DNA from: Candidatus Omnitrophota bacterium
GTDB taxonomy: Bacteria; Omnitrophota; Omnitrophia; Omnitrophales; Aquincolibacteriaceae
NCBI GenBank assembly: GCA_035368605.1
Contig: DAOSLF010000005.1
Location: forward strand, 54,520 to 118,519
Reading direction: 5' to 3'
Length of the DNA stretch: 64,000 nt
The notes under the pieces are model-generated. The model did no database searches. It was not told the origin of the DNA and saw only the letters and a program-made list of their open reading frames with translations. The translations under genes and the position numbers were made by a program. How positions within the stretch are numbered: the stretch's first letter is position 1; each line of letters begins with the position of its first letter. Below, piece by piece: positions 9,981 through 26,724 of this stretch.

Positions 9981-9993
9981 ATCAGCGCGGCGT

Positions 9994-10050
9994 GCGGGGT
10001 ACGGAGTACGGCGTTAAAATCCCGGGTTCGCACCGTACACCGTACCCCGC
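9994..10050. repeat. Family-B GC-rich hairpin repeat, copy R1 (two 20-nt imperfect inverted arms around a 17-nt loop)
   Basis: gcggggtacggagtacggcg ... caccgtacaccgtaccccgc. It shares the GTGCGGGGTAC and GTACGGAGTACG modules with the elements at 11727-11803, 12946-13012 and 23430-23500. Confidence 0.5.
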
Positions 10051-10062
10051 GTCCAGAACTGA

Positions 10063-10161
10063 TTACGACCAGTCCTTCTTTTTGTGCCGGTTCTTGCGGA
10101 GCTTCTTCTTCCGCTTGTGTTTGTTCATCTTCCTCTTGCGCTGTTTACTTGCCCAAGGCAT
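10063..10161 (-). CDS. Small (32-aa) highly basic protein resembling ribosomal protein bS22
   Basis: Unlisted ORF (under 60 aa) encoding MPWASKQRKRKMNKHKRKKKLRKNRHKKKDWS. A GGAG SD lies 7 nt upstream of the ATG. The K/R pattern KxRKRxMxKxKHRKxxLxKxR matches the 30-33-aa bS22 family. It lies in the otherwise empty 265-nt ispE-hisG spacer. Confidence 0.5.
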   Translation of the reverse strand: MPWASKQRKRKMNKHKRKKKLRKNRHKKKDWS

Positions 10162-10245
10162 GACTCACTCCGTTCGTCATCGCCAAGAACCGGAAGCGAA
10201 GAACCGGGAACCTCTCCCGGCCCCGAGCCCCCGGCGCTCGGCCGT

Positions 10246-11124
10246 TCAGGGGATACACTTGTTTAATGGATATTCAATAATGCCGGACGCGCCCGCCTCC
10301 TTGAGCTGCGGGATCAGTTCACGGACCACGGACTCGTCGATGATGGTCTCGACACCGAGCCAGTTCTCATCCGTCAGGTTCGCGATGGTCGGCTTCTTCA
10401 TCGCGGGAAGCACGACGAGGAGCTTCTCGAGGTTCTTCTTCTCGATGTTCATTTTGAGCCCGACCTTTTCCTGGGCCCGCATCGCGCCTTCAAGGAGCAT
10501 CACAAGGTTGTCCATCTTGTGCTTCTTCCACGGGTCCCCGACGCTCTGCCTGTTCGCGATGAATTTCGGGATCGACGTAATCACGGTGTCGATGATCTTG
10601 AGCTTGTTCGCGCGGAGGCTGGATCCCGTTTCGGTCGCTTCCACGATCGCGTCGGCAAGTCGCGGCGGCTTGGCTTCCGTCGCGCCCCACGAGAACTCCA
10701 CTTCGGCGGCGACCTTGTTCTTCTTGAGATAGCGTTTCGTCACCCCGACAAGCTCGGTGACGACCTTCTTGCCCTGGAGGTCCTTCACGCTCCGGAAAGG
10801 CGACGACTCATGCACGCAGAGGACCCAGCGCACCGGATTGGAAGTCCGTTTCGAGTACTGGAGCTCGCAAAGCTCAACGACGTCGGAATCGTTCTCGACA
10901 ATCCAGTCATGGCCCGTCAGGCCACAGTCCACGATCCCCTTCTCGACGTAGCGGGACATTTCCTGCGGGCGGAACAGCACCACCTCGATCTCGGGATCAT
11001 CGATGGAGGGGATATAAGAGCGGGAGCTGACGCTGATCCTGAAACCGGCGCGCCTGAAAAGGTTACAGGTCGCCTCTTCGAGACTGCCCTTCGGCAATGC
11101 GATCTTGAGCTTGTGCGTGGTCAT
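10246..11124 (-). CDS. hisG: ATP phosphoribosyltransferase, long form with C-terminal regulatory domain
   Basis: 292 aa beginning MTTHKLKIALPKGSLEEATCNLFRRAGF. It has the HisG catalytic fold motifs and the long-form C-terminal domain. Confidence 0.9.
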   Translation of the reverse strand: MTTHKLKIALPKGSLEEATCNLFRRAGFRISVSSRSYIPSIDDPEIEVVLFRPQEMSRYVEKGIVDCGLTGHDWIVENDSDVVELCELQYSKRTSNPVRWVLCVHESSPFRSVKDLQGKKVVTELVGVTKRYLKKNKVAAEVEFSWGATEAKPPRLADAIVEATETGSSLRANKLKIIDTVITSIPKFIANRQSVGDPWKKHKMDNLVMLLEGAMRAQEKVGLKMNIEKKNLEKLLVVLPAMKKPTIANLTDENWLGVETIIDESVVRELIPQLKEAGASGIIEYPLNKCIP

Positions 11125-11197
11125 AAGTGGCGAATTCTAGCGGTTTGAGGTCAGGGTGTCAACTGAGGGTCACCTTGCGCCTTCCCCTTTCCACCGA

Positions 11198-11218
11198 ATC
11201 CAACCTCGTAGGTTGGAT
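11198..11218. repeat. Family-A 21-bp perfect palindrome ATCCAACCTCGTAGGTTGGAT (copy 1, intergenic hisG/mgtC)
   Basis: Exact palindrome with the conserved flanks ccgAATCCAACC...GGTTGGATcggtt. The same element occurs at 16698-16740 (two copies), 26725-26745 and 35206-35226. Confidence 0.8.
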
Positions 11219-11235
11219 CGGTTCATGGGGGATGG

Positions 11236-11712
11236 TCAGGGACGCTCTTCCCTCTTCGGCGGCAGGACCTTTTCCTGCACCTTGGAAAAAATGACGAACA
11301 CGATCAGGACCAGCACCGTCGTAAAAATCGCCGGGCGGAACAGGCCGAGGCCGCAGGCAAGCCCGACGCCGCACATGGCCCATATCCCCGCCGCGGTCGT
11401 CAGCCCCCTCACAGCGCCCTGCGAGGAACGGATGATCGCGCCCGCCCCGAGGAACCCGATCCCGGTCACAACCTGCGCCGCGATGCGCGCGGGATCCACG
11501 ACCGTGATACCCCTGTACGTCTCAAAAATATTGATCGAGACGATCATCATGAGCGCGGAGCCGATACAGACGAGCGTGTAGGTCTTGAACCCCGCCTCTT
11601 TCATGCTGAGCTCGCGCTCAAGCCCGATCGCGGCGCCAAGCCCGGCGGCCATGAGAAGGCGGTAAATCGTTTCAACGTCCTGAGGGGTCAAAAAAGAAAG
11701 CCATGGACACAT
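11236..11712 (-). CDS. MgtC/SapB family membrane protein
   Basis: 158 aa with the MgtC N-domain pattern GLGAAIGLERE...DPARIAAQVVTGIGFLGAGAIIR...GLTTAAGIW. Confidence 0.8.
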   Translation of the reverse strand: MCPWLSFLTPQDVETIYRLLMAAGLGAAIGLERELSMKEAGFKTYTLVCIGSALMMIVSINIFETYRGITVVDPARIAAQVVTGIGFLGAGAIIRSSQGAVRGLTTAAGIWAMCGVGLACGLGLFRPAIFTTVLVLIVFVIFSKVQEKVLPPKREERP

Positions 11713-11726
11713 GTGAACCTCCCGAT

Positions 11727-11803
11727 TCAGTACGGAGTACGAAGTTTCGGGTGCGGAGATATGATAGCCGACCTTCCGCTCCGCACGTCGCCCCCCGTAC
11801 CCG
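11727..11803. repeat. Family-B hairpin repeat, copy R2 (intergenic mgtC/tsaD)
   Basis: cagtacggagtacgaagtttcgggtgcggag ... ctccgcacgtcgccccccgtaccc, with internal complementarity gtgcggag/ctccgcac. Confidence 0.45.
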
Positions 11804-11885
11804 TTAACGTATTTGCAACTCCGGCTCGCCGGTCATTGAAAAACGGCATCTGGTGTTTGGTGAGACCGGCCGTCCGGTACCATTA

Positions 11886-13028
11886 CTAACGGCCACCCGC
11901 GGCCATAGCTAAAGACGGCTCTCCCGTCATCCTGAAAGACGATCGGCGGCCTTGCTGAAAAAGCCCGAATCCGCGCCGGGCAATCATGGCACCGTTATCG
12001 GTCGAAAGCGGGAACGGCGGAAACCAGACCTCGACTCCCTTGGCCCTCGCCTCCCGGGTCAGTTTATTCCGGAGATGCGAGTTCGCGCTCACCCCTCCGC
12101 CGACCACGATATCCGATACACCCTTGAACCCGGCCGCGTCGAGTGTTTTTGTGACCAGCCAATCAATGACCGCGCGCTGGAAACTCGCGGCAATGTCCGC
12201 GCTCGACGGCGCGTCCGGCTTCGGCTGTCCCGTCTTCGGGTCTTTCACGAGGTAAAGCACCGCGGTTTTGATGCCCGAAAAACTAAAATCAAAGCGATGG
12301 GTATCATGAGCCTCCCGGTTCCCCCCCTCGAAAGAAGGGGAAGACTTCCCGGAAAATCGCCCCAACCTGGGGCACGTGAATTGAACCGCGCGCGGGTTCC
12401 CCTCCCGGGCGAGCCTGTCGATCACGGGACCGCCGGGGTAACCGAGATCGAGGATCTTCGCGACCTTGTCGTAGGCTTCGCCGACCGCGTCGTCGATCGT
12501 TTCGCCGAGGACGCGTATCTTCCCTTTTTCGCAATAAGTGATCGTCGTGTGCCCGCCGGAGACGAGGAGTCCGATGAACTTTTCAGGCGCGGGCCGGTCG
12601 AAAAAATTCGCGGCGAGGTGCGCCTCCATATGATTGACGCCGACAAGCGGGATGCCGAGCTCATAGGCGAGCGCCTTCGCGAAGGAGACGCCGACGAAAA
12701 GCGAGCCGATCAGTCCCGGCCCCTGCGTCACCGCGATCAGATCGAGGTCCGGGGCCCGGATTTTCGCCTCCGCGAGCGCCTCGTCAAAAACGCAGCGGAT
12801 CTGTTCCATCGAATGCCGCGACGCGATCTCGGGCACGACGCCGCCGAATTTCCTGTGCCGGAAGAGACTCGAGGAAACAACATTGGAGAGGATCTTCGCA
12901 CCGTTTTCGATGACGGCGCAGGACGTTTCGTCGCAGGAGGTTTCGATACCGAGTACGTAGAACGGGGCACGGAGTCCGCGGCCGGCCGCTCCGCCCTTAC
13001 GCCGTACTAGTTTTTTAGCTTGCGACAT
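11886..13028 (-). CDS. tsaD: tRNA N6-threonylcarbamoyladenosine synthase TsaD (Kae1/Gcp). Start at MSQAKK; the listed ORF 11886..13349 is an Arg-rich 5' extension.
   Basis: Core VLGIETSCDETSCAVI..., the HMEAH metal site and a GGVSAN-type C-domain. The only canonical start upstream of the GIETSCDE motif is the ATG at 13026-13028. It overlaps the gatB 3' end by 22 nt, and its first 24 codons are encoded by a family-B repeat. Confidence 0.85.
   Translation of the reverse strand: MSQAKKLVRRKGGAAGRGLRAPFYVLGIETSCDETSCAVIENGAKILSNVVSSSLFRHRKFGGVVPEIASRHSMEQIRCVFDEALAEAKIRAPDLDLIAVTQGPGLIGSLFVGVSFAKALAYELGIPLVGVNHMEAHLAANFFDRPAPEKFIGLLVSGGHTTITYCEKGKIRVLGETIDDAVGEAYDKVAKILDLGYPGGPVIDRLAREGNPRAVQFTCPRLGRFSGKSSPSFEGGNREAHDTHRFDFSFSGIKTAVLYLVKDPKTGQPKPDAPSSADIAASFQRAVIDWLVTKTLDAAGFKGVSDIVVGGGVSANSHLRNKLTREARAKGVEVWFPPFPLSTDNGAMIARRGFGLFQQGRRSSFRMTGEPSLAMAAGGR
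12946..13012. repeat. Family-B repeat, copy R3; its minus-strand reading starts CTAGTACGGCGTAAGGGCGGAG
   Basis: It is highly similar to the minus-strand reading of R4 (CTAGTACGAGGTACGGGGTGCGGAG). The TAG within CTAG is the gatB stop codon, and the element is translated as the TsaD N-terminal extension. Confidence 0.5.
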
Positions 13029-14503
13029 AAGATCTCGTTGACGACCTTCGGATTCGCCTTGCCTCCCGTCTCTTTCATGACGAAGCCCACGATCGCACCG
13101 ACGGCCTTCTGCTTCCCGGCCTTGAACTCGGCGACGGCGTTCGGATTCGCGGCGATCGCTTTCTCGACGGCCTCTTCGATCAGCCCCGCGTCGGAGACCT
13201 GGACGAGGCCCTTTTCTTTCACGAGCGTTTCCGCGTCCTTGCCGGTCTCGAACATCATCCCGAGCACGTCCTTCGCGATCTTCCCGGAGATGGTCCCGCC
13301 CTCGATCAGATTCAGAAGACCCGCGAACGCTTTCGGCGCCACCGGACAATTTTCGACCGTAAGACCTTTCGCGTTCAGGAGGGCGAGGAGTTCCGTCAGA
13401 ATCCAGTTACTCGCCCGTTTCGCGGAAAAGGGGTCAGACACCTTTTCCCTGTCTTCCGAAAAAGGTGTCTGACCCCTTTCGCGGCCCTTGAGACATTCTT
13501 CGAAATAGTCCGCGACCTTCTTGTCCTCGACGAGCGTGCAGGCGTCGTATTCGGGAAGACCGTGGTCCCTCATGAACCGCTTCGCGCGCTCAAGCGGTAA
13601 TTCGGGCAGTGTCTTCCGGATCGCTTCGACCGTTTCGCGCGTCAGCGTGAAAGGCACGAGGTCCGGGTCGGGGAAATAGCGGTAGTCATGCGCGTCCTCT
13701 TTCGAACGCATGGAAAAGGTCATACCTTTCGCGTCGTTCCAAAGCCGCGTCTCCTGGACGATCGTTTCGCCGTCCGTGATCGCTTCGATCTGCCGTGCGA
13801 TCTCGCACTGGATCGCGCGCTGGACCATCTTGAACGAGTTCAGGTTCTTGATCTCGACCTTCGTCCCGAACTTTTCCTGACCGACGGGACGGACCGACAC
13901 GTTCGCGTCGCAGCGGAGGCTTCCTTTTTCCATGTCGCAGTCGCTCACTTCCGCGTACCGGAGAATGGCCTTGAGCGCGGTCAGGTAATCGTAGGCCTCC
14001 TGCGGCGAACGGATATCGGGTTCGGAAACGATCTCAAGAAGCGGCACGCCGCCCCGGTTGTAATCGACAAGGCTCCCGTCCACGATGCCTTCGTGGAGAA
14101 GTTTGCCCGCGTCCTCTTCGAGGTGCGCGCGCGTAATCCCGATTTTCTTTTCGACTGTTTTTCCGTCCGGAGTTTTCGTTTCGATCAGGACTTCGCCGCG
14201 GCCGTTCACGGGCATATCGTATTGCGATATCTGATACGCCTTCGGAAGATCGGGATAAAAGTAGTTCTTGCGGTCAAACTTGAGCCGCTCCGCGACCTTG
14301 CAGTTCAGCGCGAGCCCCGCCTTGATGCCAAGCCTCAGCGCCTCTTCATTCACCACCGGCAGGGACCCCGGCCAGCCGAGACACACCGGGCACGTGTTCC
14401 GGTTCCCCTCTTCCCCGAACGTCGTCGGGCAAGGGCAGAACAACTTGCTCTTTGTCTTCAGCTGCACGTGGACTTCCAATCCGATTACGGGTTCGTAGTT
14501 CAT
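13007..14503 (-). CDS. gatB: Asp/Glu-tRNA(Asn/Gln) amidotransferase subunit B
   Basis: 498 aa beginning MNYEPVIGLEVHVQLKTKSKLFCPCPT... with C-terminal YqeY-like domain motifs. A GGGAG SD is embedded in the last codons of the upstream GIY-YIG ORF. Confidence 0.95.
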   Translation of the reverse strand: MNYEPVIGLEVHVQLKTKSKLFCPCPTTFGEEGNRNTCPVCLGWPGSLPVVNEEALRLGIKAGLALNCKVAERLKFDRKNYFYPDLPKAYQISQYDMPVNGRGEVLIETKTPDGKTVEKKIGITRAHLEEDAGKLLHEGIVDGSLVDYNRGGVPLLEIVSEPDIRSPQEAYDYLTALKAILRYAEVSDCDMEKGSLRCDANVSVRPVGQEKFGTKVEIKNLNSFKMVQRAIQCEIARQIEAITDGETIVQETRLWNDAKGMTFSMRSKEDAHDYRYFPDPDLVPFTLTRETVEAIRKTLPELPLERAKRFMRDHGLPEYDACTLVEDKKVADYFEECLKGRERGQTPFSEDREKVSDPFSAKRASNWILTELLALLNAKGLTVENCPVAPKAFAGLLNLIEGGTISGKIAKDVLGMMFETGKDAETLVKEKGLVQVSDAGLIEEAVEKAIAANPNAVAEFKAGKQKAVGAIVGFVMKETGGKANPKVVNEILCRKLKN

Positions 14504-14506
14504 TTT

Positions 14507-15121
14507 CTATTCTCCCGCTTCAAACCTTCTCCTGCGTTCTTCAAGCGTTTCGCCCTCGTACATCCAATAAATCGGCCCCTGCACTGAGTACTCTCTTCCA
14601 AGGGCTTTTTGGGCTGCGTTTGAAAGGCTTGTAACTTCTCCATTATATTCAACAGACCGGTTATCAATGACTTTCGCTTTTATGTTTTCATCATTAATGA
14701 AGAAAAGCTCCGCCCCCGGCGGGATATCAACCATTTTAAAATTGAAGATAGCACGCTTTGCGCGAGCCTGATTTAAGGCCTGCCGATCTTCTTCCGTTTC
14801 AACATAATCTTTTTTAGGCGTAACATTCTCAACTTCGGCAAGCCGCAGTGCCGCAAGAGCTCGCTCCGGAGCAATCTCAAAAAATTCTCTGCTGAAACGG
14901 ACGCGCCGATCCGAGAATGCATCATGCAACTGCTTTTCAACAAAATTTGCATTTTTGACGGTGCAAGCATAAAAGCATTCGAACGGAAGCGGCATATTTG
15001 TTGTGTCCAGATCGCGAATGCGCTTTTCGAGATTGGTCGTCCGCCCAATTTTTACATACCCGGGCATGGCTTCATTAATGAGAATATAGACTATTTCATC
15101 CATAAAACTCTTTTCCCTCAA
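14507..15121 (-). CDS. GIY-YIG-superfamily protein (T5orf172/MUG113-like N-domain plus DUF4357-like C-domain), AT-rich and inserted between gatA and gatB
   Basis: 204 aa. The N-domain IVYILINEAMPGYVKIGRTTNLEKRIRDL...EKQLHDAFSDRRVRFSREFFEI matches T5orf172. The C-terminal YWMYEGETLEERRRR matches the DUF4357 pattern. The coding sequence is visibly AT-rich compared with its flanks. Its stop TAG lies 4 nt before the gatB ATG. Confidence 0.7.
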   Translation of the reverse strand: MREKSFMDEIVYILINEAMPGYVKIGRTTNLEKRIRDLDTTNMPLPFECFYACTVKNANFVEKQLHDAFSDRRVRFSREFFEIAPERALAALRLAEVENVTPKKDYVETEEDRQALNQARAKRAIFNFKMVDIPPGAELFFINDENIKAKVIDNRSVEYNGEVTSLSNAAQKALGREYSVQGPIYWMYEGETLEERRRRFEAGE

Positions 15122-15438
15122 GCGCTATTTTTAAACCGTTTGTCGTCAAACAAAAGACATCCGCGCCCAAACAATACCGATTTGCTTTCCCGTCTGTTTG
15201 AAAACCTTTTGAACAGACGCCGGATAATCCGCGGATTCGCCGGGATGTGCGCCCATCATAACCGGTATCCCGGCCTTTGACGGTAATCCCCTCCTGACAC
15301 AAAATTCACTGCCGTTCGTCCGGTTTTCCGGCGGGCCGGGGAATTCCGTCCCGGTCCAATTTGCCCGCATGCGGTTAAATTCACTTCCGGGCCGGGCTTC
15401 CGCCACCGTTTCAATCTGCGCGGCTGAAACGGTTCCTG

Positions 15439-16881
15439 CTAGTCCAGCTTCGGCTTTCTTTTATAGACCCTGGCTTCCTGCTCAAACGCGTAGGCGGCGC
15501 GGAACATCGTCGCCTCGTCAAAGGGCCGGGCCATGAGCTGCATGCCGATGGGCAGGCCGCCCGAGGTAAATCCGCACGGCACCGACATCGCCGGAATGCC
15601 CGCGATGTTCGCCGGGACCGTGAAGATATCGGACAGGTACATCGCGATCGGATCCGCCGCCTTTTCGCCGAGCTTGAAGGCCGGCGTCGGCGAGGTCGGC
15701 GACAAGATAACATCGACTTCCCTGAAGGCCTTCTCAAAATCCCGGCGGATCAGCGTCCGGACCTTCTGCCCTTTCAAGTAGTAAGCCTCGTAGTAGCCGG
15801 CCGAGAGCACGAACGTCCCGAGAAGGATGCGCCGCTTGGTCTCCTGGCCGAAGCCCTGGTTACGGGTTTCAAAATACATTTCGCGAAGGTCCTTTGACGG
15901 AACGCGCAGGCCGTACTCCACGCCGTCGAACCGGCTGAGGTTCGAGCTCGCCTCCGCGACGGCGACGATACAGTAGACCGCGACGGAATATTCCGTGTGC
16001 GGAAGGCTGACCGGCTTGAGTTCGGCACCGAGCTTCCTGTAGAGGTCCGCCGCGGCGCGGACGCTTTTTTCGACTTCCGGGTCGATGCCTTCGATGAAAT
16101 ATTCCTTCGGGAGGCCGATCTTCAGGCCTTTCACGTCACGCTTGAGCGATTGCGTGAAATCCGGCACGGGCCGGGGCGCGGACGTGGAATCTTTCGGGTC
16201 GTGACCGGCGAGGATGTTCATGAGGATCGCGGCGTCCTCGACCGTCTTCGTGACGGGACCGATCTGGTCAAAGCTCGAACCGAACGCGATGAGCCCGTAG
16301 CGCGAGACGCGGCCGTAGGTCGGCTTCACGCCCACCACGCCGCAGAGCGCCGCGGGCTGGCGGATTGAACCGCCGGTGTCGGAACCGAGCGCCGCAAGCG
16401 TCATGTCCGCCGCGACCGAGGCCGCCGAGCCGCCGCTCGAGCCGCCCGGCACGCGCGTGAGGTCCCAGGGATTTTTGCACGGGCCGAACGCGGAAGTCTC
16501 ACAGGATGAACCGAACGCGAACTCGTCCATATTACACCGGCCAAAGAGCGTCGCGTCCGCCGCCTTCAGCTTCGCGATCACGGTCGCGTCGTAGGGCGGC
16601 ACGTGCTTCTCGAGAATCCGCGATGCGCAGGTCACTTCCCGGCCTTCGATGCAGATATTGTCCTTGCTGGAGACCGGAGCGCCGTACAGTGAACCGCTCC
16701 AACCTCGCAGGTTGGATTTATCCAACCTGCGAGGTTGGATATGGTTGTCAAAATCCAGGAAAGCGTTGATCCCGGGATTCAGTTCAGCGGCGCGTTTCGT
16801 GAACGCGTCGAGCAGAGGCTGGGCGCCCTCTTTTTTCGCGAACTCGATCCCTTCTTTGAGAGTAAACCTGATCAGATCCAT
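15439..16881 (-). CDS. gatA: Glu-tRNA(Gln) amidotransferase subunit A
   Basis: 480 aa with the amidase signature GGSSGGSAASVAA and the SKDNICIEG...TTCASRILE motifs. Residues about 46-62 (NHIQPRRLDKSNLRGWSG) are encoded by two tandem family-A palindromes. Confidence 0.95.
   Translation of the reverse strand: MDLIRFTLKEGIEFAKKEGAQPLLDAFTKRAAELNPGINAFLDFDNHIQPRRLDKSNLRGWSGSLYGAPVSSKDNICIEGREVTCASRILEKHVPPYDATVIAKLKAADATLFGRCNMDEFAFGSSCETSAFGPCKNPWDLTRVPGGSSGGSAASVAADMTLAALGSDTGGSIRQPAALCGVVGVKPTYGRVSRYGLIAFGSSFDQIGPVTKTVEDAAILMNILAGHDPKDSTSAPRPVPDFTQSLKRDVKGLKIGLPKEYFIEGIDPEVEKSVRAAADLYRKLGAELKPVSLPHTEYSVAVYCIVAVAEASSNLSRFDGVEYGLRVPSKDLREMYFETRNQGFGQETKRRILLGTFVLSAGYYEAYYLKGQKVRTLIRRDFEKAFREVDVILSPTSPTPAFKLGEKAADPIAMYLSDIFTVPANIAGIPAMSVPCGFTSGGLPIGMQLMARPFDEATMFRAAYAFEQEARVYKRKPKLD
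16698..16740. repeat. Two tandem family-A palindromes (TCCAACCTCGCAGGTTGGAT tt ATCCAACCTGCGAGGTTGGAT) inside the gatA coding sequence, in frame
   Basis: Seen directly in the sequence. The second copy has its central CGC flipped to GCG. Both copies are translated as part of GatA. Confidence 0.8.
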
Positions 16882-16938
16882 TTCGGCTCATGATAACCCG
16901 CACCGGATAAATCCGGCCTCGCGGGTCGGTTACGGTTA

Positions 16939-17401: not shown

Positions 17402-17956
17402 TCAGAGCGCGCCGTCATAGCGGTTGAACGCGCCGATCTCCGCGAGAGACTTCCGGTTCTTCGGAACAACCTGGTCCTCGGCCGGGTACCCGAGCGCGAT
17501 CACGACGTCGACCTTGCGGTCCTTCGGGACGCCGAGCTCCTCCTTCAGGGCCTTCTCATCGAACCAGCCGACCCAGCAGGTCCCGAGGCCGAGCTCCCGG
17601 GCCCGCAGGACAAAGTGCTCTCCCGCGATTCCGATATCGGTCAGGTAATATTCGGTCTTCCGGACCTGCGCCCCGACGGCGGCGAGAAACTTCATCTTTT
17701 CCGAAACCACCGCGATAATCACGGGCGCGTTCTTCGCGAACTCGTTCATGGAATAAAGTCCCGAAAAGATTCTCCCCGCGAGCCGCGCGCGTTTCCCGGG
17801 ATCATCCACCACAATAAATTTCCAGGGCTGGGAATTGCACGCCGACGGCGCGAGGCGGGCCGCCTCGAGGCAGGCAAGAATATCCTCCCGCTTGACGGGT
17901 TTATCGGAAAATCGCCGGACGCTTCTTCGCTTCAGGACAAGATCAGTAAAGGACAT
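17402..17956 (-). CDS. Nitroreductase family protein (FMN-dependent)
   Basis: RRSVRRFSDKPVKREDILACLEAARLAPSACNSQPWKFIVV. An AAGGAG SD lies upstream. Confidence 0.85.
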   Translation of the reverse strand: MSFTDLVLKRRSVRRFSDKPVKREDILACLEAARLAPSACNSQPWKFIVVDDPGKRARLAGRIFSGLYSMNEFAKNAPVIIAVVSEKMKFLAAVGAQVRKTEYYLTDIGIAGEHFVLRARELGLGTCWVGWFDEKALKEELGVPKDRKVDVVIALGYPAEDQVVPKNRKSLAEIGAFNRYDGAL

Positions 17957-18272
17957 GCCGTATCTCCTTGAGGGAAGTGATTCTACACCCTGACCTCAAA
18001 AGGGCTACCGTTAATTTCAAGCCCCCGGAAGCCGATGTTCAAACGGGCCCCAAAACCGCCGTTATCTATTATTCCTGAAAAAGAGGCGACAAGATCCGCG
18101 ACGCGCTCATGAAAAAGTACGGAAATCCGCACAAGACCTCGCGATATTACCGGCATTACAAATGGCGCGGCTCCTCGTTCGGCGAGGAGATTATCCTGGA
18201 TTGTTTCCGGGATTCGGAGAAGATGAAGAACACGACCGAACCGGTCTTCGACGCCGGCAAGGCATATCGCCC

Positions 18273-18908
18273 CTAACCGGCCGCGGCGTTCCCGCCCATC
18301 CCTTTCACGACATACTCCAGCACGACATCCGCCTGTTTGGCCGCCGCGATGGCGACGCGCGGCGCGAGCGCCGGCGTTCTCCGGATGTCGGAGCGAAGAT
18401 CCCCGATCATCACGAGGTTCTCCCTGATGCGATGGATGCGAATCTCGTCGCTGGCGCCGATCCCCCCGAGTCCCGAAGCGGTCACGAGGAATTTTCCCGT
18501 TGGCAGCAGCGTTTCGACGAACATGCTTTTCGCGTCGGCCTGGTCGAAACATTCCACGACGGCGTCGCATTCCGCGAACACGGAAGGGAGATTCGAGCGG
18601 TCGAGCTTCAGGACGAGCGCGTGAAGGGTCAGGCCCGGAAGCGTCCGGTGAAGGTTCTCGGCCAGCGCCTCGACCTTCGGCCTCCCGACCTGGTCCGCGA
18701 AATAAGCCTGCCGGTCCAGGTTCGTGTCGTCGATCACGTCAAAATCCGCGATCACAAGGTCCCGGAACCCCGAACGCACGAGAGCGGTCGCGCAATTCGA
18801 GCCGAGCCCGCCCGCGCCCGCGATCCCGATCTTCGCGGCCCGCACCCGCCGGAAACCTTCAGCGCCGAGCTTCGCGATCAGGTCCCTTTCGAAGGCTTCG
18901 GGATTCAT
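18273..18908 (-). CDS. thiF: ThiF/MoeB-type E1-like adenylyltransferase (sulfur carrier protein ThiS adenylyltransferase)
   Basis: Rossmann motif IGIAGAGGLGS and ADFDVIDDTNLDRQ. It is the last gene of thiSGHF, overlapping thiH by 4 nt. Confidence 0.85.
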   Translation of the reverse strand: MNPEAFERDLIAKLGAEGFRRVRAAKIGIAGAGGLGSNCATALVRSGFRDLVIADFDVIDDTNLDRQAYFADQVGRPKVEALAENLHRTLPGLTLHALVLKLDRSNLPSVFAECDAVVECFDQADAKSMFVETLLPTGKFLVTASGLGGIGASDEIRIHRIRENLVMIGDLRSDIRRTPALAPRVAIAAAKQADVVLEYVVKGMGGNAAAG

Positions 18909-20017
18909 ATCGGCATCCAGTCCTTCAGGACAGGTTGATAACCTTTCGCCGCGAGCATGGCCTTGATCGCCTCGACATCGCGTTCGTCCGCGATCCGGAA
19001 CTGTGGCGCGCTCCGGTCAGTTTTTGTCGCGAGCGTGTGCCCGCCCACTTCGGTAGTGGAACCCGCCGACATTTTCGTGATCCCCAGAGGAACGAGGTGT
19101 TCCCGGAGTTCCGACGATTCCCGCGTCGAGAGCGTGAGCCCGAGGCGCGACAGGAAAAGCCGCATCGCGAGGATGATCTGGACGAAGTCCCGGTCGCTGA
19201 TCTTTTCATCTCCACGGAAATCGCCTTCGTGGGGCCTGAGACGCGGCACCGAGGCGCCGACCTCCACGTCCGGGAAAGTGTCCTGCAGGTACCGAGCGTG
19301 GAGCCCGAGACGAAAGGCCTCGACGCGCCAATCGCTCAGACCGAGTAATGCCCCGATATTCACAGACCGCATTCCGCTCCTCGCGGCCCGTTCGGGGGCC
19401 TCGAGACGGAACCGGAAATCTTTCTTCGGCCCGGACCGGTGGACGCGGTCATAGACGGCTTCGTCGTAGGTCTCCTGGTAGATCGTGAGACCGTCCACCC
19501 CTTCGGCGGCCAGTTCGGCATACTCGGCTTCCGTGAGCGCGTAGACCTCGACCGAGATCGAACTGAAATGTTTCCTGAGGACCTGGACCGCGTCCCTGAT
19601 ATAAGAGACCGGTGCCCGCTTGCGGGCATCTCCCGTCAGAATAAGGATATGTTCCAGACCGGTCGAAGCGATGTACGCGGCTTCGCGCTCCACTTCCTCA
19701 AGGGTCATGGTCCGCCGCGGCAAACGGTTCGTCGCGTTGAACCCGCAATACTCGCACTGGTTCTCGCAGAAGTTCGAAAGGTACATCGGCGTGTAAAGCT
19801 GGATGACCCGTCCGAACTGCCGGAGGGTGATCTCATGGGCCCGCTGCGCCATAAGCTCGATCTGGTCCGCCGCCGCCGGCGAAAGCAGGGCGAAGAGCCG
19901 TTCGGAACGCGGGTCGTCGTCGAGGACCGCGCGCCGGACCTCCGCGGCCGTCACATCACGGAAGGCGTTCGCGGAAAAAAAATCTTTGTATTGTTGAAGG
20001 GTATCGTAGAAGCTCAT
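18905..20017 (-). CDS. thiH: 2-iminoacetate synthase ThiH (radical SAM tyrosine lyase)
   Basis: The radical-SAM cysteine motif sits in YLSNFCENQCEYCGF. Length is 370 aa, in a thiG/thiF context. Confidence 0.9.
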   Translation of the reverse strand: MSFYDTLQQYKDFFSANAFRDVTAAEVRRAVLDDDPRSERLFALLSPAAADQIELMAQRAHEITLRQFGRVIQLYTPMYLSNFCENQCEYCGFNATNRLPRRTMTLEEVEREAAYIASTGLEHILILTGDARKRAPVSYIRDAVQVLRKHFSSISVEVYALTEAEYAELAAEGVDGLTIYQETYDEAVYDRVHRSGPKKDFRFRLEAPERAARSGMRSVNIGALLGLSDWRVEAFRLGLHARYLQDTFPDVEVGASVPRLRPHEGDFRGDEKISDRDFVQIILAMRLFLSRLGLTLSTRESSELREHLVPLGITKMSAGSTTEVGGHTLATKTDRSAPQFRIADERDVEAIKAMLAAKGYQPVLKDWMPI

Positions 20018-20068
20018 GTTTGATAAACATCGGGGACATACCTCGCATGAAACGGGGTGAGCCCCGAT

Positions 20069-20845
20069 TTATTCATTCCTTAAAAAACCGGTAAGCGGGG
20101 ACGACGCGTTCGCGACCTGGCCCCGCGCGGGAAGTCCGGCAAGGCAGGCCCGGCGGCCGGCGATCACGGCCTCCCGGAAAGCGGCGGCCATCTGAACGGG
20201 ATCCTCCGCGATGGCGACGGCGGTGTTCACGAGGACCGCGGCGCAGCCCATCTCCAGGCACTCGCACGCCTGCGACGGACTGCCGAGCCCCGCGTCCACG
20301 ATGACGGGGACCTTGATCTCACGGACCATGATCCCGACAAGCTCGCGGGTCCTGAGACCCCGGTTGCTTCCGATCGGAGCGCCGAGCGGCATCACGGCCG
20401 CCGCGCCCGCGTCCGCCATGCGACGCGCCATTGAAAGGTCCGGGCTCATATAAGGAAGGACGATGAACCCCTCTTTCACGAGAATCTCCGTCGCCTTCAG
20501 CGTTTCGAGATTCTCCGGCAAAAGGTATTTATTGTCCCGGATGACCTCGATCTTCACCCAGTCCCCCGCGCCGCTCGCCCGCGCGAGTCTCGCGATGCGG
20601 ACCGCCTCGTCGGCGTTGCGGGCGCCGGAAGTGTTCGTCATAAGTACGCATTTTTTGGGGATGAAATCGAGGATGTTGTCCGTGGCGGAAGTGGCATCGA
20701 CCCTGCGAAGCGCGACGGTCACGATATCGGCACCCGAAGCCTCGACGGCTTTTTTCATAACGTCATGGCTCGGGAATTTCCCGGTCCCGAGCAGCAGGCG
20801 GCTCCGGAGTTCGCGGCCGCCGATCCTGAAAAGGTCCGTCATCTC
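20069..20845 (-). CDS. thiG: Thiazole synthase (start taken at MTDLFRIGG, overlapping the thiS stop)
   Basis: [32 protein letters not shown] is a ThiG TIM-barrel signature. It follows thiS. Confidence 0.9.
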
Positions 20846-21044
20846 ACCCTCCTCCGACAAAGCTGATAATCTCGAGGGTGTCGTTCTCGGCAAGCGTCAC
20901 GGTCTCCCATATCTCCCGCGGGACGATCCGGGCGTTGTGTTCGACCACGATCCCCTCGGGACGGAGATTCCTCGCGCCGATGAAGGCGGAAAGATTGACC
21001 GTTTTTTCGATACGCTCTTCTTTTCCGTTGATTCTGATGATCAT
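20844..21044 (-). CDS. thiS: Sulfur carrier protein ThiS
   Basis: 66-aa ubiquitin-like protein ending ...ISFVGGG. It sits upstream of thiG. Confidence 0.8.
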
Positions 21045-21154
21045 GAAGCTGTTCCCTTAAGATGTGCGGCAAGAGGGATTCCCGCGGGTCAGAAAATGAT
21101 ATGGGAATTATAGCGGGAATGGCCGCCGGAAACAACCCGCCCCGAACCCGGGTC

Positions 21155-21403
21155 CTACCCGGAGAAAAAACCTTTGACCCGGTCGAGAAGACCACTCAGG
21201 AATCCGGCCTTCCGAAGGACGCGGGCGCCGCAATAGAGACAATCCATGCTGTCCGCGGGAACGCGTTTCTTGCAGGAAGGGCACGGAACCGTTCCGGGGC
21301 CGAGGATTTCGTCTTTCGCCCATTTCTCCTTCAGGGCTTCGGGCGGCTCTTCGTCCCGGAGCTCCCAATCCTTCGGCTCATCATCTTCAAACATGTTCGT
21401 CAT
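21155..21403 (-). CDS. Small hypothetical zinc-ribbon protein (CPxC...CxxC)
   Basis: 82-aa ORF with an acidic N-terminus and CPSCKK...CLYCG. An AAGGA lies just upstream of the ATG. There is no homology beyond the motif. Confidence 0.35.
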   Translation of the reverse strand: MTNMFEDDEPKDWELRDEEPPEALKEKWAKDEILGPGTVPCPSCKKRVPADSMDCLYCGARVLRKAGFLSGLLDRVKGFFSG

Positions 21404-21575
21404 CCTTGATATCGGGGGCCGTCATTCCCGGCTGAAAACCGGCTGTTCCCGTTTTGAAGGATTGTACTACGAAAAACAATTCCGCCGCGCGGAACTTTCC
21501 GGAAAATCCGCGGGTCTAATCAAATAAAAATGTGAAGGTCCCGCCAAACCGGACCTCACGCCAAAGGAGCCTCTC

Positions 21576-22343
21576 ATGAAAAGAAACCTTTTTATACTCG
21601 TGCCTCTTCTTACCGTGACTCTCGCGATCTTCTCCGCGCGAACCGCTTTCGCGGGGCCAAAACCCGGGCCGGGCATTGACCGGCACAAACATTATGAGCC
21701 TTACTGTCCGCGCCCCGGCCGGTATTACCACACCCTCCCTCCCGGTCATCTCACAATGCGGGTCGCGAACATGCTCTTCTATTACAGGGACGGCGTCTAT
21801 TACCGGGAGACCCCTTCCGGATACGTGATCGTCAACGCGCCCGCGGGGGCCGTGATCCGGGAACTTCCTCCCTATTACAAACAGATTCCGTATGAGAACA
21901 ACGTCTATTACTATTACAACAACACCTATTACGTCCGGCATCCGGCCGGTTACACCGTCGTGAATCCCCCGGCGCAGGTCGTGGTTTCGAATCCGCCTGC
22001 CGTCGAAGCGCCGAAAGAAACGGTCGTCGTGACGGTACCGAACCCGAACGGCAGCTACATCCCGGTCACGCTCGAGAAATACAGTGACGGTTACAAGGGC
22101 CCGAACGGCGAGTTCTATCCGGATTACCCGACCATCGACCAGTTGAAGGCAATGTACGCGGTGGCTTCGGCGACCGCCGAGCGTCCGCTGCCGGAGGAAC
22201 TGGAGTTCCAGGTCCCCAACAGGAACGGCAGCTTTACGAAGGTCACGCTCCGAAGAACGAAGGACGGCTACGTGGGGCCCGAGGGCGAGTATTACAAAGA
22301 CAAGCCCACAATGGATCAGTTGAAGGTCATGTACGCGAAATAA
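21576..22343 (+). CDS. Secreted Tyr-rich hypothetical protein with an internal tandem ~40-aa repeat
   Basis: It has a strong AAGGAG SD and the signal peptide MKRNLFILVPLLTVTLAIFSARTAFA. A YY/GYxVVNPP-rich region follows. Two repeats are NPNGSYIPVTLEKYSDGYKGPNGEFYPDYPTIDQLKAMYA and NRNGSFTKVTLRRTKDGYVGPEGEYYKDKPTMDQLKVMYA. Confidence 0.7.
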   Translation: MKRNLFILVPLLTVTLAIFSARTAFAGPKPGPGIDRHKHYEPYCPRPGRYYHTLPPGHLTMRVANMLFYYRDGVYYRETPSGYVIVNAPAGAVIRELPPYYKQIPYENNVYYYYNNTYYVRHPAGYTVVNPPAQVVVSNPPAVEAPKETVVVTVPNPNGSYIPVTLEKYSDGYKGPNGEFYPDYPTIDQLKAMYAVASATAERPLPEELEFQVPNRNGSFTKVTLRRTKDGYVGPEGEYYKDKPTMDQLKVMYAK

Positions 22344-22372
22344 GGACCGCTGACAAAAAAGGCCGCCCCCTG

Positions 22373-23161
22373 TTACTCCCCGAGGAATTCTCGAAGCCTG
22401 GGACCGATCAGGTCCTTCGATTCAAAGAAACCGTCATTGTGCCCGCCCCGGATCTCAAGGGATTCTTTCGGGTCCGCCGCGGCCCGGAACAGGTCGGCGC
22501 CGAGACGCGGAGGAACGATTTTGTCCTCCCGGCTCCGGATGAAAAGTTTGGGGACCTTGAGCGAGGCAACCGCTTCCCGGGTATCGAACCGGCTCGCCAG
22601 GATCCAGGGCGGGATCACGGGATAATGGGCACGGGCCATGTCCCCGATGTTCGTAAAACTGTTTTCGAAGATTACGGCGCCGAGCGGTCGCCGCGTCGCG
22701 AGATGGGCAACGACGGACCCGCCGATCGATTCGCCATAGCCCGTGATTCGTTCCGGAGGAACCCCGCGTGAACGCAGGTAATCGTACGCCGCTTCGGCAT
22801 CCCGGTAGAAACCCTGCTCTCCCGGCCGGCCTTCGCTGTTCCCGTAGCCGCGATAGTCCAGGATCAGGACCCCGTACCCCAAGCCGTTCAGGAACGCGAG
22901 CTTCTCGATCCGGTGGCTGATGTTCCCCGCGTTCCCGTGACAGAAAAGGAATACTTTGGCGCCTTCCCTGCCGGGCAGATACCACGCGTTCAGTTTCTGC
23001 CGGTCCGTAGTCTCGAAATAAACATCTTCGAACCGGAGACCGTACGCGGAAGGGAGCGCGGCCAGGGGCTTGACGGGAAAAAAGATCGCGCGGCCTTCAA
23101 GGAACCGGACCGCGAGGAACGGGAGCGCTACGAGGGTCAGCAGCGTCAGAAACCTGGTCAT
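22373..23161 (-). CDS. Alpha/beta hydrolase (start at MTRFLTLLTL; the listed ORF is 5'-extended)
   Basis: It has a signal/TM N-terminus, the nucleophile elbow GYGESIGGS, an HGNAGN motif and a downstream His. An SD GGGGAAGG lies upstream. Confidence 0.8.
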   Translation of the reverse strand: MTRFLTLLTLVALPFLAVRFLEGRAIFFPVKPLAALPSAYGLRFEDVYFETTDRQKLNAWYLPGREGAKVFLFCHGNAGNISHRIEKLAFLNGLGYGVLILDYRGYGNSEGRPGEQGFYRDAEAAYDYLRSRGVPPERITGYGESIGGSVVAHLATRRPLGAVIFENSFTNIGDMARAHYPVIPPWILASRFDTREAVASLKVPKLFIRSREDKIVPPRLGADLFRAAADPKESLEIRGGHNDGFFESKDLIGPRLREFLGE

Positions 23162-23210
23162 GAGGGTCACCTTCCCCCGCGATTCCGTCAGCCGCGGAAC
23201 GGTCCGGCGA

Positions 23211-23420
23211 TCATTTGGAGGGCGCGCCGGCACCGCCGCCAACGCCCGTTTTTTTGAGGACCGCCTCGGCAAGGCACCAGCCGGTGAAGGCGGACTGGAT
23301 CAGGTTGAGGCCGACCAGGACGGTCCAGATCAGCCACCAGGGACTCACCAGGACCGCGAGCGCGACGCTCATCAGAATGAAGCTTCCCGCGATAACACGG
23401 ATGTGTTTTTCAATAGTCAT
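23211..23420 (-). CDS. DUF2892 (YgaP-like) small inner-membrane protein, 69 aa
   Basis: The unlisted real start is inside ORF 23211..24008. The sequence is MTIEKHIRVIAGSFILMSVALAVLVSPWWLIWTVLVGLNLIQSAFTGWCLAEAVL..., where LxQSAFTGWC is the DUF2892 hallmark. A GGAGG SD lies 7 nt upstream. Confidence 0.6.
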   Translation of the reverse strand: MTIEKHIRVIAGSFILMSVALAVLVSPWWLIWTVLVGLNLIQSAFTGWCLAEAVLKKTGVGGGAGAPSK

Positions 23421-23429
23421 TTCAGAACC

Positions 23430-23500
23430 TCCGGGTGCGGGGTACAAGGCGGAAAAACCGGACCTTTGCCTCCGGACTCCGCACCCCGTACCTCGTACTA
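23430..23500. repeat. Family-B repeat, copy R4, directly abutting and including the TAG stop of the RND gene
   Basis: The minus-strand reading is CTAGTACGAGGTACGGGGTGCGGAGTCCGG..., nested in a 12-bp outer stem GGCGGAAAAACC/GGTTTTTCCGCC. A large stem-loop sits between the RND gene and the DUF2892 gene. Confidence 0.5.
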
Positions 23501-26710: not shown

Positions 26711-26724
26711 TATCCCTCAACCGA

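Follow-up and report, generated by a model that had tools for sequence, protein, structure and literature searches.

The window, a 64,000-nt stretch of a contig from a Candidatus Omnitrophota metagenome-assembled genome, carries tsaD, gatB, ispE, mgtC and genes for an RND permease, a YgaP-like protein and a GT2 glycosyltransferase, and within and between these genes lie five hairpin repeats, R1 to R5 (Table 1). Only five copies of this family are found in the window, and four of them cluster between 10 and 23.5 kb.

Table 1. Repeat elements and associated coding sequences in the window.
Feature	Coordinates	Strand	Description
R1	9981..10064	-	Heptamer-array hairpin; arms GGGGTACGGTGTACGGTGCG and CGCCGTACTCCGTACCCCGC
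32-aa K/R-rich ORF	10063..10161	-	Conserved, MPWASKQRKRKMNKHKRKKKLRKNRHKKKDWS; near-identical in L088 and L089
R2	11725..11805	-	More degenerate copy in the tsaD-to-mgtC spacer
tsaD CDS, 380 aa	11886..13028	-	ATG at 13026-13028, inside gatB; 380 aa in six assemblies
R3	12948..13010	-	Decayed copy; gatB stop through TsaD codons F23-Y24
gatB CDS, 498 aa	13007..14503	-	Ends EILCRKLKN, then TAG (13007-13009)
R4	23428..23500	-	Hairpin between the RND stop and the ribosome-binding site/ATG of the YgaP-like gene
RND (ACR_tran) permease CDS	23498..26710	-	Ends YYMMAEKT, then TAG (23498-23500)
R5	31170..31272	+	Degenerate copy, arms 31186-31217 and 31239-31266; newly found

The R1 to R4 loci have in common 7-nt units in tandem, reading GTRCGGN in one arm and NCCGYAC in the other. 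The same strings recur at separate loci: GTGCGGGGTAC at 9992 and 23435, GTACGGAGTACG at 9999 and 11730, and GGGTGCGGAG at 11749 (+) and 23476-23485 (-); on the minus strand, R3 reads CTAGTACGGCGTAAGGGCGGAG and R4 reads CTAGTACGAGGTACGGGGTGCGGAG. The pattern GTACGGNGTRCGG, allowing at most one mismatch, matched eight times against 0.43 expected, a count reached in 0 of 100 shuffles, and a three-unit pattern with at most three mismatches matched nine times against 0.39 expected. This enrichment, far beyond chance, bears out the proposal in the initial annotation that the four loci are copies of one shared hairpin module; the shuffles exclude chance similarity, and R5 provides a further copy. Period-7 segments number five in the window, compared with zero to two for any other period not divisible by 3. 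The 7-nt periodicity of the module had been overlooked in the initial annotation.

Each arm of the R-elements is an array of 2-4 heptamers, and the arms pair in blocks of 5-6 bp, interrupted every 7 nt by a small internal loop. A 6-nt core of the heptamer is conserved, and the seventh base is variable and often mismatched between arms. Hairpin strength is uneven, with z-scores relative to shuffles of -5.1 for R1 (-49.9 kcal/mol), -1.8 for R4, -1.4 for R5 (-37.1 kcal/mol), -1.0 for a 118-nt region at R2 (81-nt core, -32.4 kcal/mol) and -0.4 for R3. Folding is about as good for the antisense as for the sense strand; a G-U asymmetry of the kind that would indicate RNA is thus lacking. No Rfam family matched the elements. 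Among assemblies of this species from NCBI, ENA, Logan and JGI, R1 to R4 are 99-100% identical, except for indels in one low-coverage assembly (R1 96%), indicating that they are not assembly artifacts. We saw no within-species length polymorphism of the arrays among five or six independent population samples.

The elements fit closely between their neighboring genes. R1 starts at the stop codon of the 32-aa ORF and exactly fills the spacer from that stop (TAA 10063-10065) to the ispE ATG (9978-9980), its stem beginning 0 nt past the stop and finishing 1 nt ahead of the start. R2 ends 19 nt from the mgtC ATG (11710-11712), directly ahead of the mgtC GGGAGG ribosome-binding site. The stem of R4 begins 2 nt past the RND stop, upstream of the YgaP-like gene (ATG 23418-23420); its 5′ arm reads GTACGAG GTACGGG GTGCGGA, and its apex has a small stem followed by TTTTT. 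R5 lies in frame within the GT2 gene (31019-31924) and encodes GHGAQSTKYGEKATGRHTVLRAPHSVP. Among GT2 homologs, the loop at this site has a baseline of 17-21 aa and reaches up to 45 aa with hairpin-like peptides; L213 has GTACGGC units at the site, and L214 has CGGGAAA/CGTTCCC units.

In relatives whose TsaD is 69-72% identical, heptamer hairpins occupy the same spacers (RND-YgaP, gatB-tsaD and small ORF-ispE); the L089 orthologs of R1, a GTACGGN hairpin, and R4 lie at 12692-12760 and 5287-5326 of that locus. The unit depends on the genome, some having GTACGGN, others CGGGGAA and still others CGGATGN. GTACGG tandems number four in the window, eight in L089, three in L087 and four in L213, with zero in L210, L214, L211, L088 and L212; CGGGRA tandems number 11 in L210 and four in L214, and CGGATG tandems four in L211 and two in L088. 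Across 255 kb of Omnitrophota loci we counted 45 period-7 segments versus 5-9 for periods 4, 5, 8, 10 and 11, and in control loci 16 versus 7-10 for other periods. Hairpins are formed from many different unit sequences across the lineage, and R1 to R5 are this genome's GTRCGGN version of a heptamer-palindrome class that pervades it. The initial annotation had overlooked this lineage-wide class, of which its family is one genome-specific version.

These elements occupy short spacers of same-strand gene strings and usually end just ahead of the ribosome-binding site or start codon that follows. The main stem starts 0-6 nt past the stop in 10 of 15 co-directional spacers, and the stem-to-start distance is 0-23 nt in 14 of the 15. 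This placement, together with the occupation of the same spacers in relatives, supports the earlier suggestion that the element persists at 3′ gene ends. Spacer folds are stable (z = -3.3 to -8.2 in 14 of 18 tested) despite sequences that cannot be aligned between species. One copy, in L149, is flanked by divergent gene starts. In-frame arrays are found within conserved genes too, in the tsaD leader, the GT2 loop, the GatB loop (L087, L211 and L210) and RND and GT2 C-terminal tails, and gatB of this species has a unique perfect hairpin inserted in frame. Hairpins are absent from gatB-tsaD in L212, from tsaD-mgtC in L089 and, in L087, from the spacer ahead of ispE, a site at which gene content is different. 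The hairpins are dispensable at such single sites, a pattern equally compatible with a neutral, a selfish and a functional element.

At the edges of R3 and R4, the TAG stops of gatB and the RND gene lie exactly where the initial annotation placed them, and of each TAG only the G belongs to the first heptamer. The idea that the repeat donates stop codons is weakly supported. It does not hold for gatB, whose end residue is the same, within one position, in four of four aligned species, indicating an ancestral stop. The part that stands concerns relatives, in which RND and GT2 frames enter arrays and end at array-derived stops (a TAA within GTAAGGC; a 9-residue repeat-encoded tail). In L211, the gatB TGA lies within a CGGATGA unit.

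R3 continues into tsaD, the gene of an essential enzyme, which overlaps gatB by 22 nt and encodes the leader MSQAKKLVRRKGGAAGRGLRAPFY. The ATG inside gatB has only a weak ribosome-binding site (GAG). Over the 132 codons preceding the conserved core there is no other in-frame ATG, GTG or TTG, confirming the overlap and making this ATG the sole usable start, so R3 is translated, as LVRRKGGAAGRGLRAPFY. Its 3′ arm, ACTCCGTGCCCCGTTCTAC, matches ACTCCGTACGCCTTTCTAC of L087. The codon of the relatives' initiator Met is filled by the last repeat unit, as GCC here and as ACG, TCC or CAT elsewhere. Comparison of TsaD N-termini in relatives found called leaders longer than 7 aa in 56 of 75 close homologs; they are lineage-specific and K/R-rich (K+R 25%, D+E 2%), and MLTL is kept in only two.

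Relatives show every state of this junction, which, with the single start in the window, upholds the claim of a remodeled TsaD N-terminus. Translated hairpins of three unit types occur at gatB-tsaD, and in five of five genomes with a translated hairpin the tsaD frame is stop-free from the called start to the core; the other two frames contain up to two stops within 120 nt upstream. L212, with no hairpin, reads TAGCATGCCTTTTTAC, i.e., an MPFYTLG start, and in L088 the hairpin is untranslated, with a normal ATG. In L087 and L089, an in-frame TTG precedes GVETSCD by one codon, so the hairpins there might be untranslated. Where the hairpin is translated, it yields a TsaD leader that is K/R-rich and variable in length. 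The identity of the element and this account of tsaD, taken together, are in our judgment probably correct, with good confidence.

To account for the class, we hypothesize that replication slippage of 7-nt units creates the arrays and alters their length and that they may be homogenized within a genome by gene conversion among copies or by selection imposed by a binding factor that co-evolves with them. On polycistronic mRNA, they would fold into stem-loops that the terminating ribosome must melt, with the effect that translation of the following gene would be coupled or throttled and the 3′ end of the upstream mRNA probably shielded. We give this explanation as a whole about an even chance. 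An RNA-level function of the stem-loops, which we infer from position only, is more tentative and falls somewhat short of even. A role as intrinsic terminators was not supported for the elements.

The elements could instead be non-autonomous mobile elements of REP/REPIN or MITE type, moved by an enzyme encoded elsewhere, such as a RAYT-like transposase, that prefers sites by stop codons and permissive protein loops and, in each genome, sets the unit. One dominant unit per genome at many dispersed sites (coding ones included), the palindromic architecture, presence/absence differences between species and the perfect gatB hairpin restricted to this species are consistent with such movement. However, the elements have no fixed length, their unit number varies, and we found no terminal inverted repeats or target duplications at them, no GTAG or CGTC tag at the stem foot and no transposase, integrase or Y1 domain among the window's proteins. 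The earlier view that the element targets its sites is therefore not sustained. Copies at orthologous sites argue for long residence rather than recent insertion; under mobility, the occupation of the same spacers in species with only 69-78% TsaD identity would imply long residence or repeated re-insertion at identical sites. We regard this explanation as unlikely.

A neutral origin, in which slippage-prone heptamer microsatellites that form palindromes by chance accumulate where selection is weak (spacers, protein termini and surface loops) with no role in expression, seems comparably doubtful. Heptameric repeats are over-represented in many bacteria, possibly through polymerase slippage (PMC4692102), the hairpins are dispensable at single sites, the window's coding copies R3 and R5 are decayed, and there is no strand asymmetry. 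Yet the arrays lack length variation among the population samples, spacer folds remain far more stable than shuffled sequences though unalignable between species, the elements tightly abut stop codons and ribosome-binding sites, and a genome-wide shared unit needs a homogenizing force.

The conserved core with its variable, often mismatched seventh base, the equivalence of both strands and the copy between divergent gene starts would also fit a role as double-stranded DNA, as operators, nucleoid-protein sites or cruciforms in which a protein reads the 6-nt core at 7-bp spacing. This seems improbable, as most copies lie between a stop and the next start in same-strand strings rather than at promoters, some lie within coding regions, and no candidate regulator was identified. 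Least credible are chance similarity, excluded by the shuffles, an untranslated R3, for which tsaD has no alternative start, and a GatB-TsaD fusion by -1 frameshifting, for which the window offers A AAA AAC in the gatB frame directly ahead of the stop, a tsaD frame at -1 and a hairpin next, but whose slippery sequence is absent in L087 (CAA AGT TAG) and L089 (TTG AAG TAA) while the ATG in TTATGT is conserved, and which the L210 ATG downstream of the gatB stop rules out as the general mechanism.

The known kinds of element closest to these are the Xanthomonas and cyanobacterial heptameric repeats, REP elements and the palindromic elements that lie in frame in Rickettsia genes. Heptamer hairpins have not previously been described in Omnitrophota, judging from a survey paper on the phylum that makes no mention of "repeat", "hairpin", "palindrom" or "intergenic".

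Like the Omnitrophota elements, REP/BIME/REPIN sequences are short, imperfect, GC-rich palindromes that occupy spacers at 3′ gene ends within operons, form species-specific families and have proposed roles in mRNA stabilization. Liang, Rudd and Deutscher reportedly found in 2015 that termination is disturbed by REPs lying within ~15 nt of a stop codon. In contrast, the arms here consist of 7-nt tandem units in variable number, there is no RAYT in the window, and the elements lack the GTAG or CGTC tag, a criterion for REP-type elements (PMC3733652).

GGGAATC arrays in Xanthomonas often form convergent pairs, are 89-93% intergenic and lie a mean of 28 nt from the upstream ORF; other heptamer arrays include Nostoc GGGGA(C/T)T and the Calothrix STRR heptamers (PMC4692102). 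As here, the 7-nt units stand in tandem and combine a conserved core with variable positions; the arrays are mostly intergenic, nearer the upstream ORF end than the downstream gene, and often paired as convergent inverted repeats that could form stem-loops. A minority of them overlap ORFs, and no function is assigned. The Omnitrophota arrays differ in that nearly every one is paired into a compact, spacer-filling hairpin, related genomes have different units at orthologous sites, several copies are read in frame as part of conserved proteins, and the units are not G-quadruplex-type repeats.

Rickettsia palindromic elements lie in frame in unrelated conserved genes and are translated as tolerated extra peptides (PMC10969869), which the TsaD leader, GT2 loop and GatB loop parallel. 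Those elements are ~150 bp and fall into defined families with a conserved peptide, whereas the Omnitrophota inserts are heptamer arrays of variable length (33-85 nt) and the elements are mainly intergenic. Finally, TAACTGA heptamer direct repeats of Beggiatoaceae and cyanobacteria, with 2-6 copies and a proposed post-transcriptional role, resemble the present arrays in being intergenic by coding-sequence boundaries, with some within ORFs (PMC4679880). Those repeats run in direct orientation immediately ahead of start codons and share one unit across phyla, whereas the Omnitrophota arrays are inverted, form hairpins just downstream of stops and use genome-specific units.

The element common to R1-R4, the four hairpin-repeat loci of the window, is a tandem 7-nt unit, GTRCGGN, whose complement NCCGYAC builds the other arm. 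R1 carries the tandem units GTGCGGG GTACGGA GTACGGC, and R4 carries GTACGAG GTACGGG GTGCGGA. Because the differences between copies are of whole units, which precludes column-by-column alignment, we used pattern and periodicity scans in place of a covariance model. The two-unit pattern matched 8 times in the window (0.43 expected) and the three-unit pattern, allowing up to 3 mismatches, 9 times (0.39 expected), counts that no shuffle reached. Period-7 self-similar segments numbered 5, compared to 0-2 at other periods not multiples of 3, and the arms of R1 and R4 account for four of these five. The modules that the initial annotation had reported at the four loci were thus confirmed as strings at their positions, at counts far above those of shuffles, and the three-unit scan of the window added a fifth copy, R5, at 31.2 kb.

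All copies are inverted pairs, and three of the five are intergenic. The minus strand carries all genes between ~9 and 27 kb of the window. Independent assemblies with the same gatB, from NCBI, ENA, Logan and JGI, match R1-R4 at 99-100% identity, the exception being indels in one low-coverage assembly, so the copies are real; no length polymorphism of the microsatellite type was found in R1-R4 among same-species assemblies. Avoidance or clustering of GTAC as a restriction site was rejected, as GTAC occurs at its expected frequency in the window (observed/expected 0.96). CTAG is strongly under-represented in the window (7 sites vs 19 expected; observed/expected 0.37), and its presence at two stops abutting repeats is explained by TAG stops preceded by C. 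A short hairpin family, (A)ATCCAACCTCGCAGGTTGGAT(T), is separate from the heptamer arrays and lies in spacers, e.g., from mgtC to hisG and upstream of the RND gene.

Coordinates of the repeat copies, the genes that they touch and other features (window unless a related locus, L, or metagenome stretch is named; z against shuffles)
Feature	Position	Strand	Description
tRNA	8984-9056		
R1	9981-10064	-	20-bp stem, -49.9 kcal/mol, z = -5.1
32-aa ORF	10063-10161	-	MPWASKQRKRKMNKHKRKKKLRKNRHKKKDWS
R2	11725-11805	-	z = -1.0
tsaD	11886-13028	-	ATG 22 nt inside gatB; product begins MSQAKKLVRRKGGAAGRGLRAPFY-VLGIETSCDE
R3	12948-13010	-	z = -0.4
gatB	13007-14503	-	ends ...EILCRKLKN then TAG
Slippery heptamer A AAA AAC	13010-13016	-	gatB frame
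gatB inverted repeat	13427-13479	-	perfect, 20 nt
198-aa ORF	~14507-15121	-	between gatA and gatB
R4	23428-23500	-	z = -1.8
R4 apex	23458-23475	-	CCGGA...TCCGG then TTTTT
RND permease	23498-26710	-	ends ...YYMMAEKT then TAG
GT2 gene	31019-31924		family-2 glycosyltransferase
R5	31170-31272	+	arms 31186-31217 and 31239-31266; three-unit match 31239-31265; z = -1.4
groEL-like, groES, groEL-like	36803-38455, 38542-38835, about 38970-40730	+	
Terminator-like hairpin	40594-40631		between A and T runs
2363-aa ORF	44980-52068	-	
(A)ATCCAACCTCGCAGGTTGGAT(T) family	11190-11223, 16689-16739, 26717-26750, 35198-35231		doubled at 16698-16739
CTAG sites	11137, 13007, 15439, 23498, 44962, 52766, 58830		13007 and 23498 are the gatB and RND stops abutting R3 and R4
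L087 GatB loop	8830-8938		CCACAGN hairpin, 19-aa insert
L211 GatB loop	8870-8926		CCACGCA/CCGTGGN hairpin
L210 GatB loop	8825-8885		four direct CGGGGAA units, giving NGERGTGNGER
L146 palindromic element	1836-1961, 4265-4431, 6242-6409		~160-nt copies

The window was assigned to contig JAKPKJ010000061.1 of the Omnitrophota MAG GCA_029553765.1, the database hits carrying Omnitrophica or Omnitrophota names, and the species also occurs in anaerobic-digester samples (e.g., JGI 3300009666 or SRR4236665). Relatives at 69-78% TsaD identity keep the gene order (RND, YgaP-like ... gatC, gatA, gatB, tsaD, mgtC, hisG, 32-aa basic ORF, ispE) and the same spacers hold heptamer-array hairpins. Locus L089 has GTACGGN units in the RND-YgaP, gatB-tsaD and small ORF-ispE spacers, and L210 has CGGGGAA/TTCCCCG in all three. 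L211 has CGGATGN/NCATCCG in the first two and a different, GCAGAC-type unit in the third. L087 has GCTCAAC in the first, GTACGGN in the second and no hairpin in the third, where its gene content differs; L088 is without the YgaP-like gene and has a different unit between gatB and tsaD and CGGATGN ahead of ispE. That the unit sequence is genome-specific is plain from tandem counts. GTACGG is counted 4 times in the window, 8 in L089, 3 in L087 and 4 in L213, with none in L210, L214, L211, L088 or L212. CGGGRA is counted 11 times in L210 and 4 in L214, with 1-3 loose matches in the window, L089, L213 and L212 and none in L087, L211 or L088; CGGATG is counted 4 times in L211 and twice in L088, with none in all others. 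Further units are GGTAAGN and GTACTTR in other spacers and CCACAGN inside gatB.

The Omnitrophota loci, 255 kb in all, contain 45 period-7 segments vs 5-9 for periods 4, 5, 8, 10 and 11; non-Omnitrophota control loci have 16 vs 7-10. The controls and the distant Omnitrophota examples are loci from a TsaD-alignment search of genome contigs with universal TsaD motifs, which had only relatives of at most 50% identity among the matches listed. A metagenome scan with the pattern GTRCGGNGTACGGNGTRCGG returned at least 120 stretches, mostly unrelated tandem repeats, and among the matches listed only L147, L149 and L195 resemble the same family. Stretch L146 (metagenome contig Ga0137464_1001223, 67% GC) holds several copies of a palindromic element whose arms carry GTGCGGN/GTACGGN heptamers. 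This organism is unrelated and of high GC, and similar units therefore recur outside Omnitrophota.

Among the neighboring genes, the 32-aa ORF is extremely K/R-rich and nearly identical in relatives. Among the calls listed, it appears at only one same-species locus of six, and at neither L087 nor L212; we take it to resemble small basic ribosome-associated peptides. The 198-aa ORF, with T5orf172/MUG113 (GIY-YIG-like) domains, is present in the window and L088 and absent from L087, L089, L210, L211 and L212. Elsewhere in the window, the 2363-aa ORF has GH94 (cellobiose/chitobiose phosphorylase-like) domains in its C-terminal third only, and its N-terminal ~1590 residues gave no Pfam match.

The orthologous spacers are unalignable between species, yet 14 of 18 folds have z values of -3.3 to -8.2. 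Their stems are made of 5-6-bp blocks with a small internal loop at every seventh base. Of 15 same-strand spacers, 10 have a main stem that starts 0-6 nt past the stop and 14 have one that finishes 0-23 nt ahead of the next start, mostly right at the ribosome-binding site. R1 extends exactly from the small-ORF stop to the ispE ATG, and its outer pairs join bases just past that stop with bases just ahead of the ATG. As an RNA-vs-DNA test, sense vs antisense folding and G-U counts revealed no asymmetry. The sole Rfam 15 match at the gathering threshold in the whole window was one tRNA, leaving the hairpins unmatched.

The stems of R1, R2 and R3 are not followed by a U/T-run, and the window shows no excess of terminator-like sites (20 found vs 17.7 expected); the elements are therefore not intrinsic (Rho-independent) terminators. 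The only terminator-like feature in any copy is the apex of R4, a 5-bp stem followed by a T-run. A canonical terminator-like hairpin lies after the second of the two groEL-like genes that flank groES (Cpn10); the DNA of this pair is 72-77% identical over repeated segments.

R3 overlaps the TsaD leader, the 24 residues ahead of the conserved core VLGIETSCDE. The initial annotation had placed the only canonical tsaD start 22 nt upstream of the gatB stop, and this was borne out: over the 132 codons that precede GIETSCDE in the window, the ATG inside gatB is the sole in-frame ATG, GTG or TTG, so R3 must be translated. Peptides predicted within the leader include SQAKKLVR and GLRAPFYVLGIETSCDETSCAVIENGAK. 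Comparison of TsaD N-termini across relatives, which the annotation had proposed as a check, revealed states from no hairpin to translated hairpins. In L212, the hairpin is absent and TAGC ATG CCT TTT TAC gives MPFYTLG; in L088, an 87-nt spacer with an untranslated hairpin is followed by an ATG and MLILG. The leader of the window is absent in both. L087 and L089 have strong GTACGGN hairpins within the called ORF and the same TTATGT start in gatB, with a TTG also one codon ahead of the G. In L210, which has a strong hairpin, the proximal start is absent and an ATG lies within the 5′ arm. The same holds for L211, where an in-frame ATG shares bases with the gatB TGA in the first unit, CGGATGA, and the third unit holds another in-frame ATG.

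The codon aligned with the L212 Met lies in the last repeat unit (ACG, GCC, TCC or CAT), and PF(Y/F)(T/V)LG comes next in all cases. The simplest reading of this alignment would be that an array overwrote the tsaD start codon and initiation shifted upstream. Called leaders exceed 7 residues in 56 of 75 TsaD homologues (65-78% identity), with a mean of 26 residues, 25% K+R and 2% D+E, and an internal MLTL is kept in only 2 of these homologues. In all five translated-hairpin genomes, the tsaD frame is stop-free from the called start to the core, despite wide differences in length; over the 120 upstream nt, up to 2 stops fall in the other two frames. Just ahead of its stop and upstream of R3, the gatB frame contains a slippery heptamer, with tsaD in the -1 frame. 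The window alone has this heptamer, which neither L087 nor L089 shares; we rejected a GatB-TsaD fusion by -1 frameshifting because the site is not conserved, and the heptamer is probably incidental.

The proposal that the element donates stop codons is weakly supported. The gatB end residue is the same, plus or minus one, in four species; this stop is therefore ancestral and simply adjoins the repeat, with only the G of TAG in the first unit. Other genes, however, do read into arrays. After YYMMA(E/K)K, RND tails read T, SATLNGQRST (GCTCAAC units), NSKA (its TAA within a GTAAGGC unit) or KGPGPEAVS before the stop, and in L213 and L214 arrays encode the GT2 tails.

Arrays also lie in frame inside proteins. 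R5, whose fold is weak, falls in frame in the GT2 gene between the DDGSTD and NKGPSAARN motifs. This loop has 35 aa in the window; in homologues (62-76% identity) it has a baseline of 17-21 aa and a maximum of 45, the long loops having hairpin-like peptides (YGVRR...RRTP, SPFPVPR, RVVRCA). Its units follow the same genome-specific rule, with GTACGGC in L213 and CGGGAAA/CGTTCCC in L214. In a GatB surface loop between IETK and KRIGITRAH, the array differs by genome, and the window has no insertion at that site. At another site, the window gatB has an inverted repeat that is a species-specific in-frame 17-aa insertion (...GRERGQTPFSEDREKVSDPFS...), absent in three relatives, unique in the window and without heptamer periodicity; its predicted fold pairs ~26 bp (-46.8 kcal/mol over a 101-nt region).

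Heptamer-array palindromes thus form a class that is kept at the same sites across species with a genome-specific unit, abuts stops and starts, and is tolerated in frame within permissive parts of proteins. One dominant 7-nt unit per genome occupies orthologous sites, both non-coding and in-frame coding (tsaD leader, GT2 loop, GatB loop, RND tail). We hypothesize that arrays arise by slippage of 7-nt units, and that gene conversion, or selection exerted by a co-evolving binding factor, may homogenize units within a genome. The position of the hairpins hints at a possible function as RNA stem-loops: an mRNA stem-loop at the array, which the terminating ribosome would have to open, could couple the next gene translationally or hold its translation back, and could shield the 3′ end upstream. 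A serious rival to such a function is a neutral or selfish element, because the sense and antisense strands fold equally well and some species lack the hairpin at one site or another. The one-unit-per-genome rule might reflect an active homogenizing system, protein- or template-directed, that rewrites or re-seeds arrays, or a co-evolving factor for which the arrays serve as operon punctuation; we regard this Omnitrophota-specific analogue of REP/RAYT on heptad arrays as improbable. Mobility of the REP/MITE type is supported neither by element anatomy nor by the gene content of the window: the elements share with REP/REPIN an imperfect 20-40-nt palindrome in extragenic operon spacers, but the GTAG or CGTC tetranucleotide described as conserved at one palindrome end (PMC3733652) is absent from the stem feet, which read CTAGTACG, GGACGCGGGG and AACGGGTACG, and the proteins encoded in the 64-kb window include no transposase or RAYT (Y1).

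The hairpin arrays affect gene calling, both at starts and C-terminal tails and where conserved proteins seem to have "insertions". To our knowledge, Omnitrophota have never been cultured, and we know of nothing on the transcript architecture of the phylum; lineage-wide hairpins wedged between a stop and the next start would shape operon expression. In tsaD, an essential enzyme would have had its start codon overwritten by a repeat that encodes its leader, the sequence varying by genome with the frame kept. Different genome-specific units at one site offer a clean comparative system for the concerted evolution of dispersed short repeats, one that also addresses the long-open question of the role of bacterial heptameric repeats.

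Among known systems, the closest match is the Xanthomonas GGGAATC and cyanobacterial heptamer repeats. Heptameric (STRR-like or Xanthomonas-type) repeats share with the window elements at least two tandem 7-nt units with a conserved core, a mainly intergenic location nearer the upstream ORF end, and some inverted pairs. The known class is defined by a high copy number, with hundreds of sites per genome. The Xanthomonas and cyanobacterial repeats form 70-75 convergent pairs per genome, are 89-93% intergenic and have a mean distance of 28 nt to the end of the upstream ORF, with a function that is not known; replication slippage of 7-nt units has been proposed as the origin of bacterial heptameric repeats generally (PMC4692102). 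Rickettsia palindromic elements, the precedent for in-frame translated palindromes (PMC10969869), share in-frame insertion in conserved genes and absence from orthologues, as in the tsaD leader, GT2 loop and GatB loop. They are ~100-150 bp with a conserved peptide, whereas the inserts here are 33-85 nt, variable in length, with peptides that vary with the unit. TAACTGA repeats are direct repeats upstream of start codons (PMC4679880). Relative to these systems, the phylum and the consistent spacer-filling hairpin form are new; judging from the sequence comparisons, so would be the switch of unit between genomes at orthologous sites, coding ones included, and an essential gene with a repeat-encoded start region.
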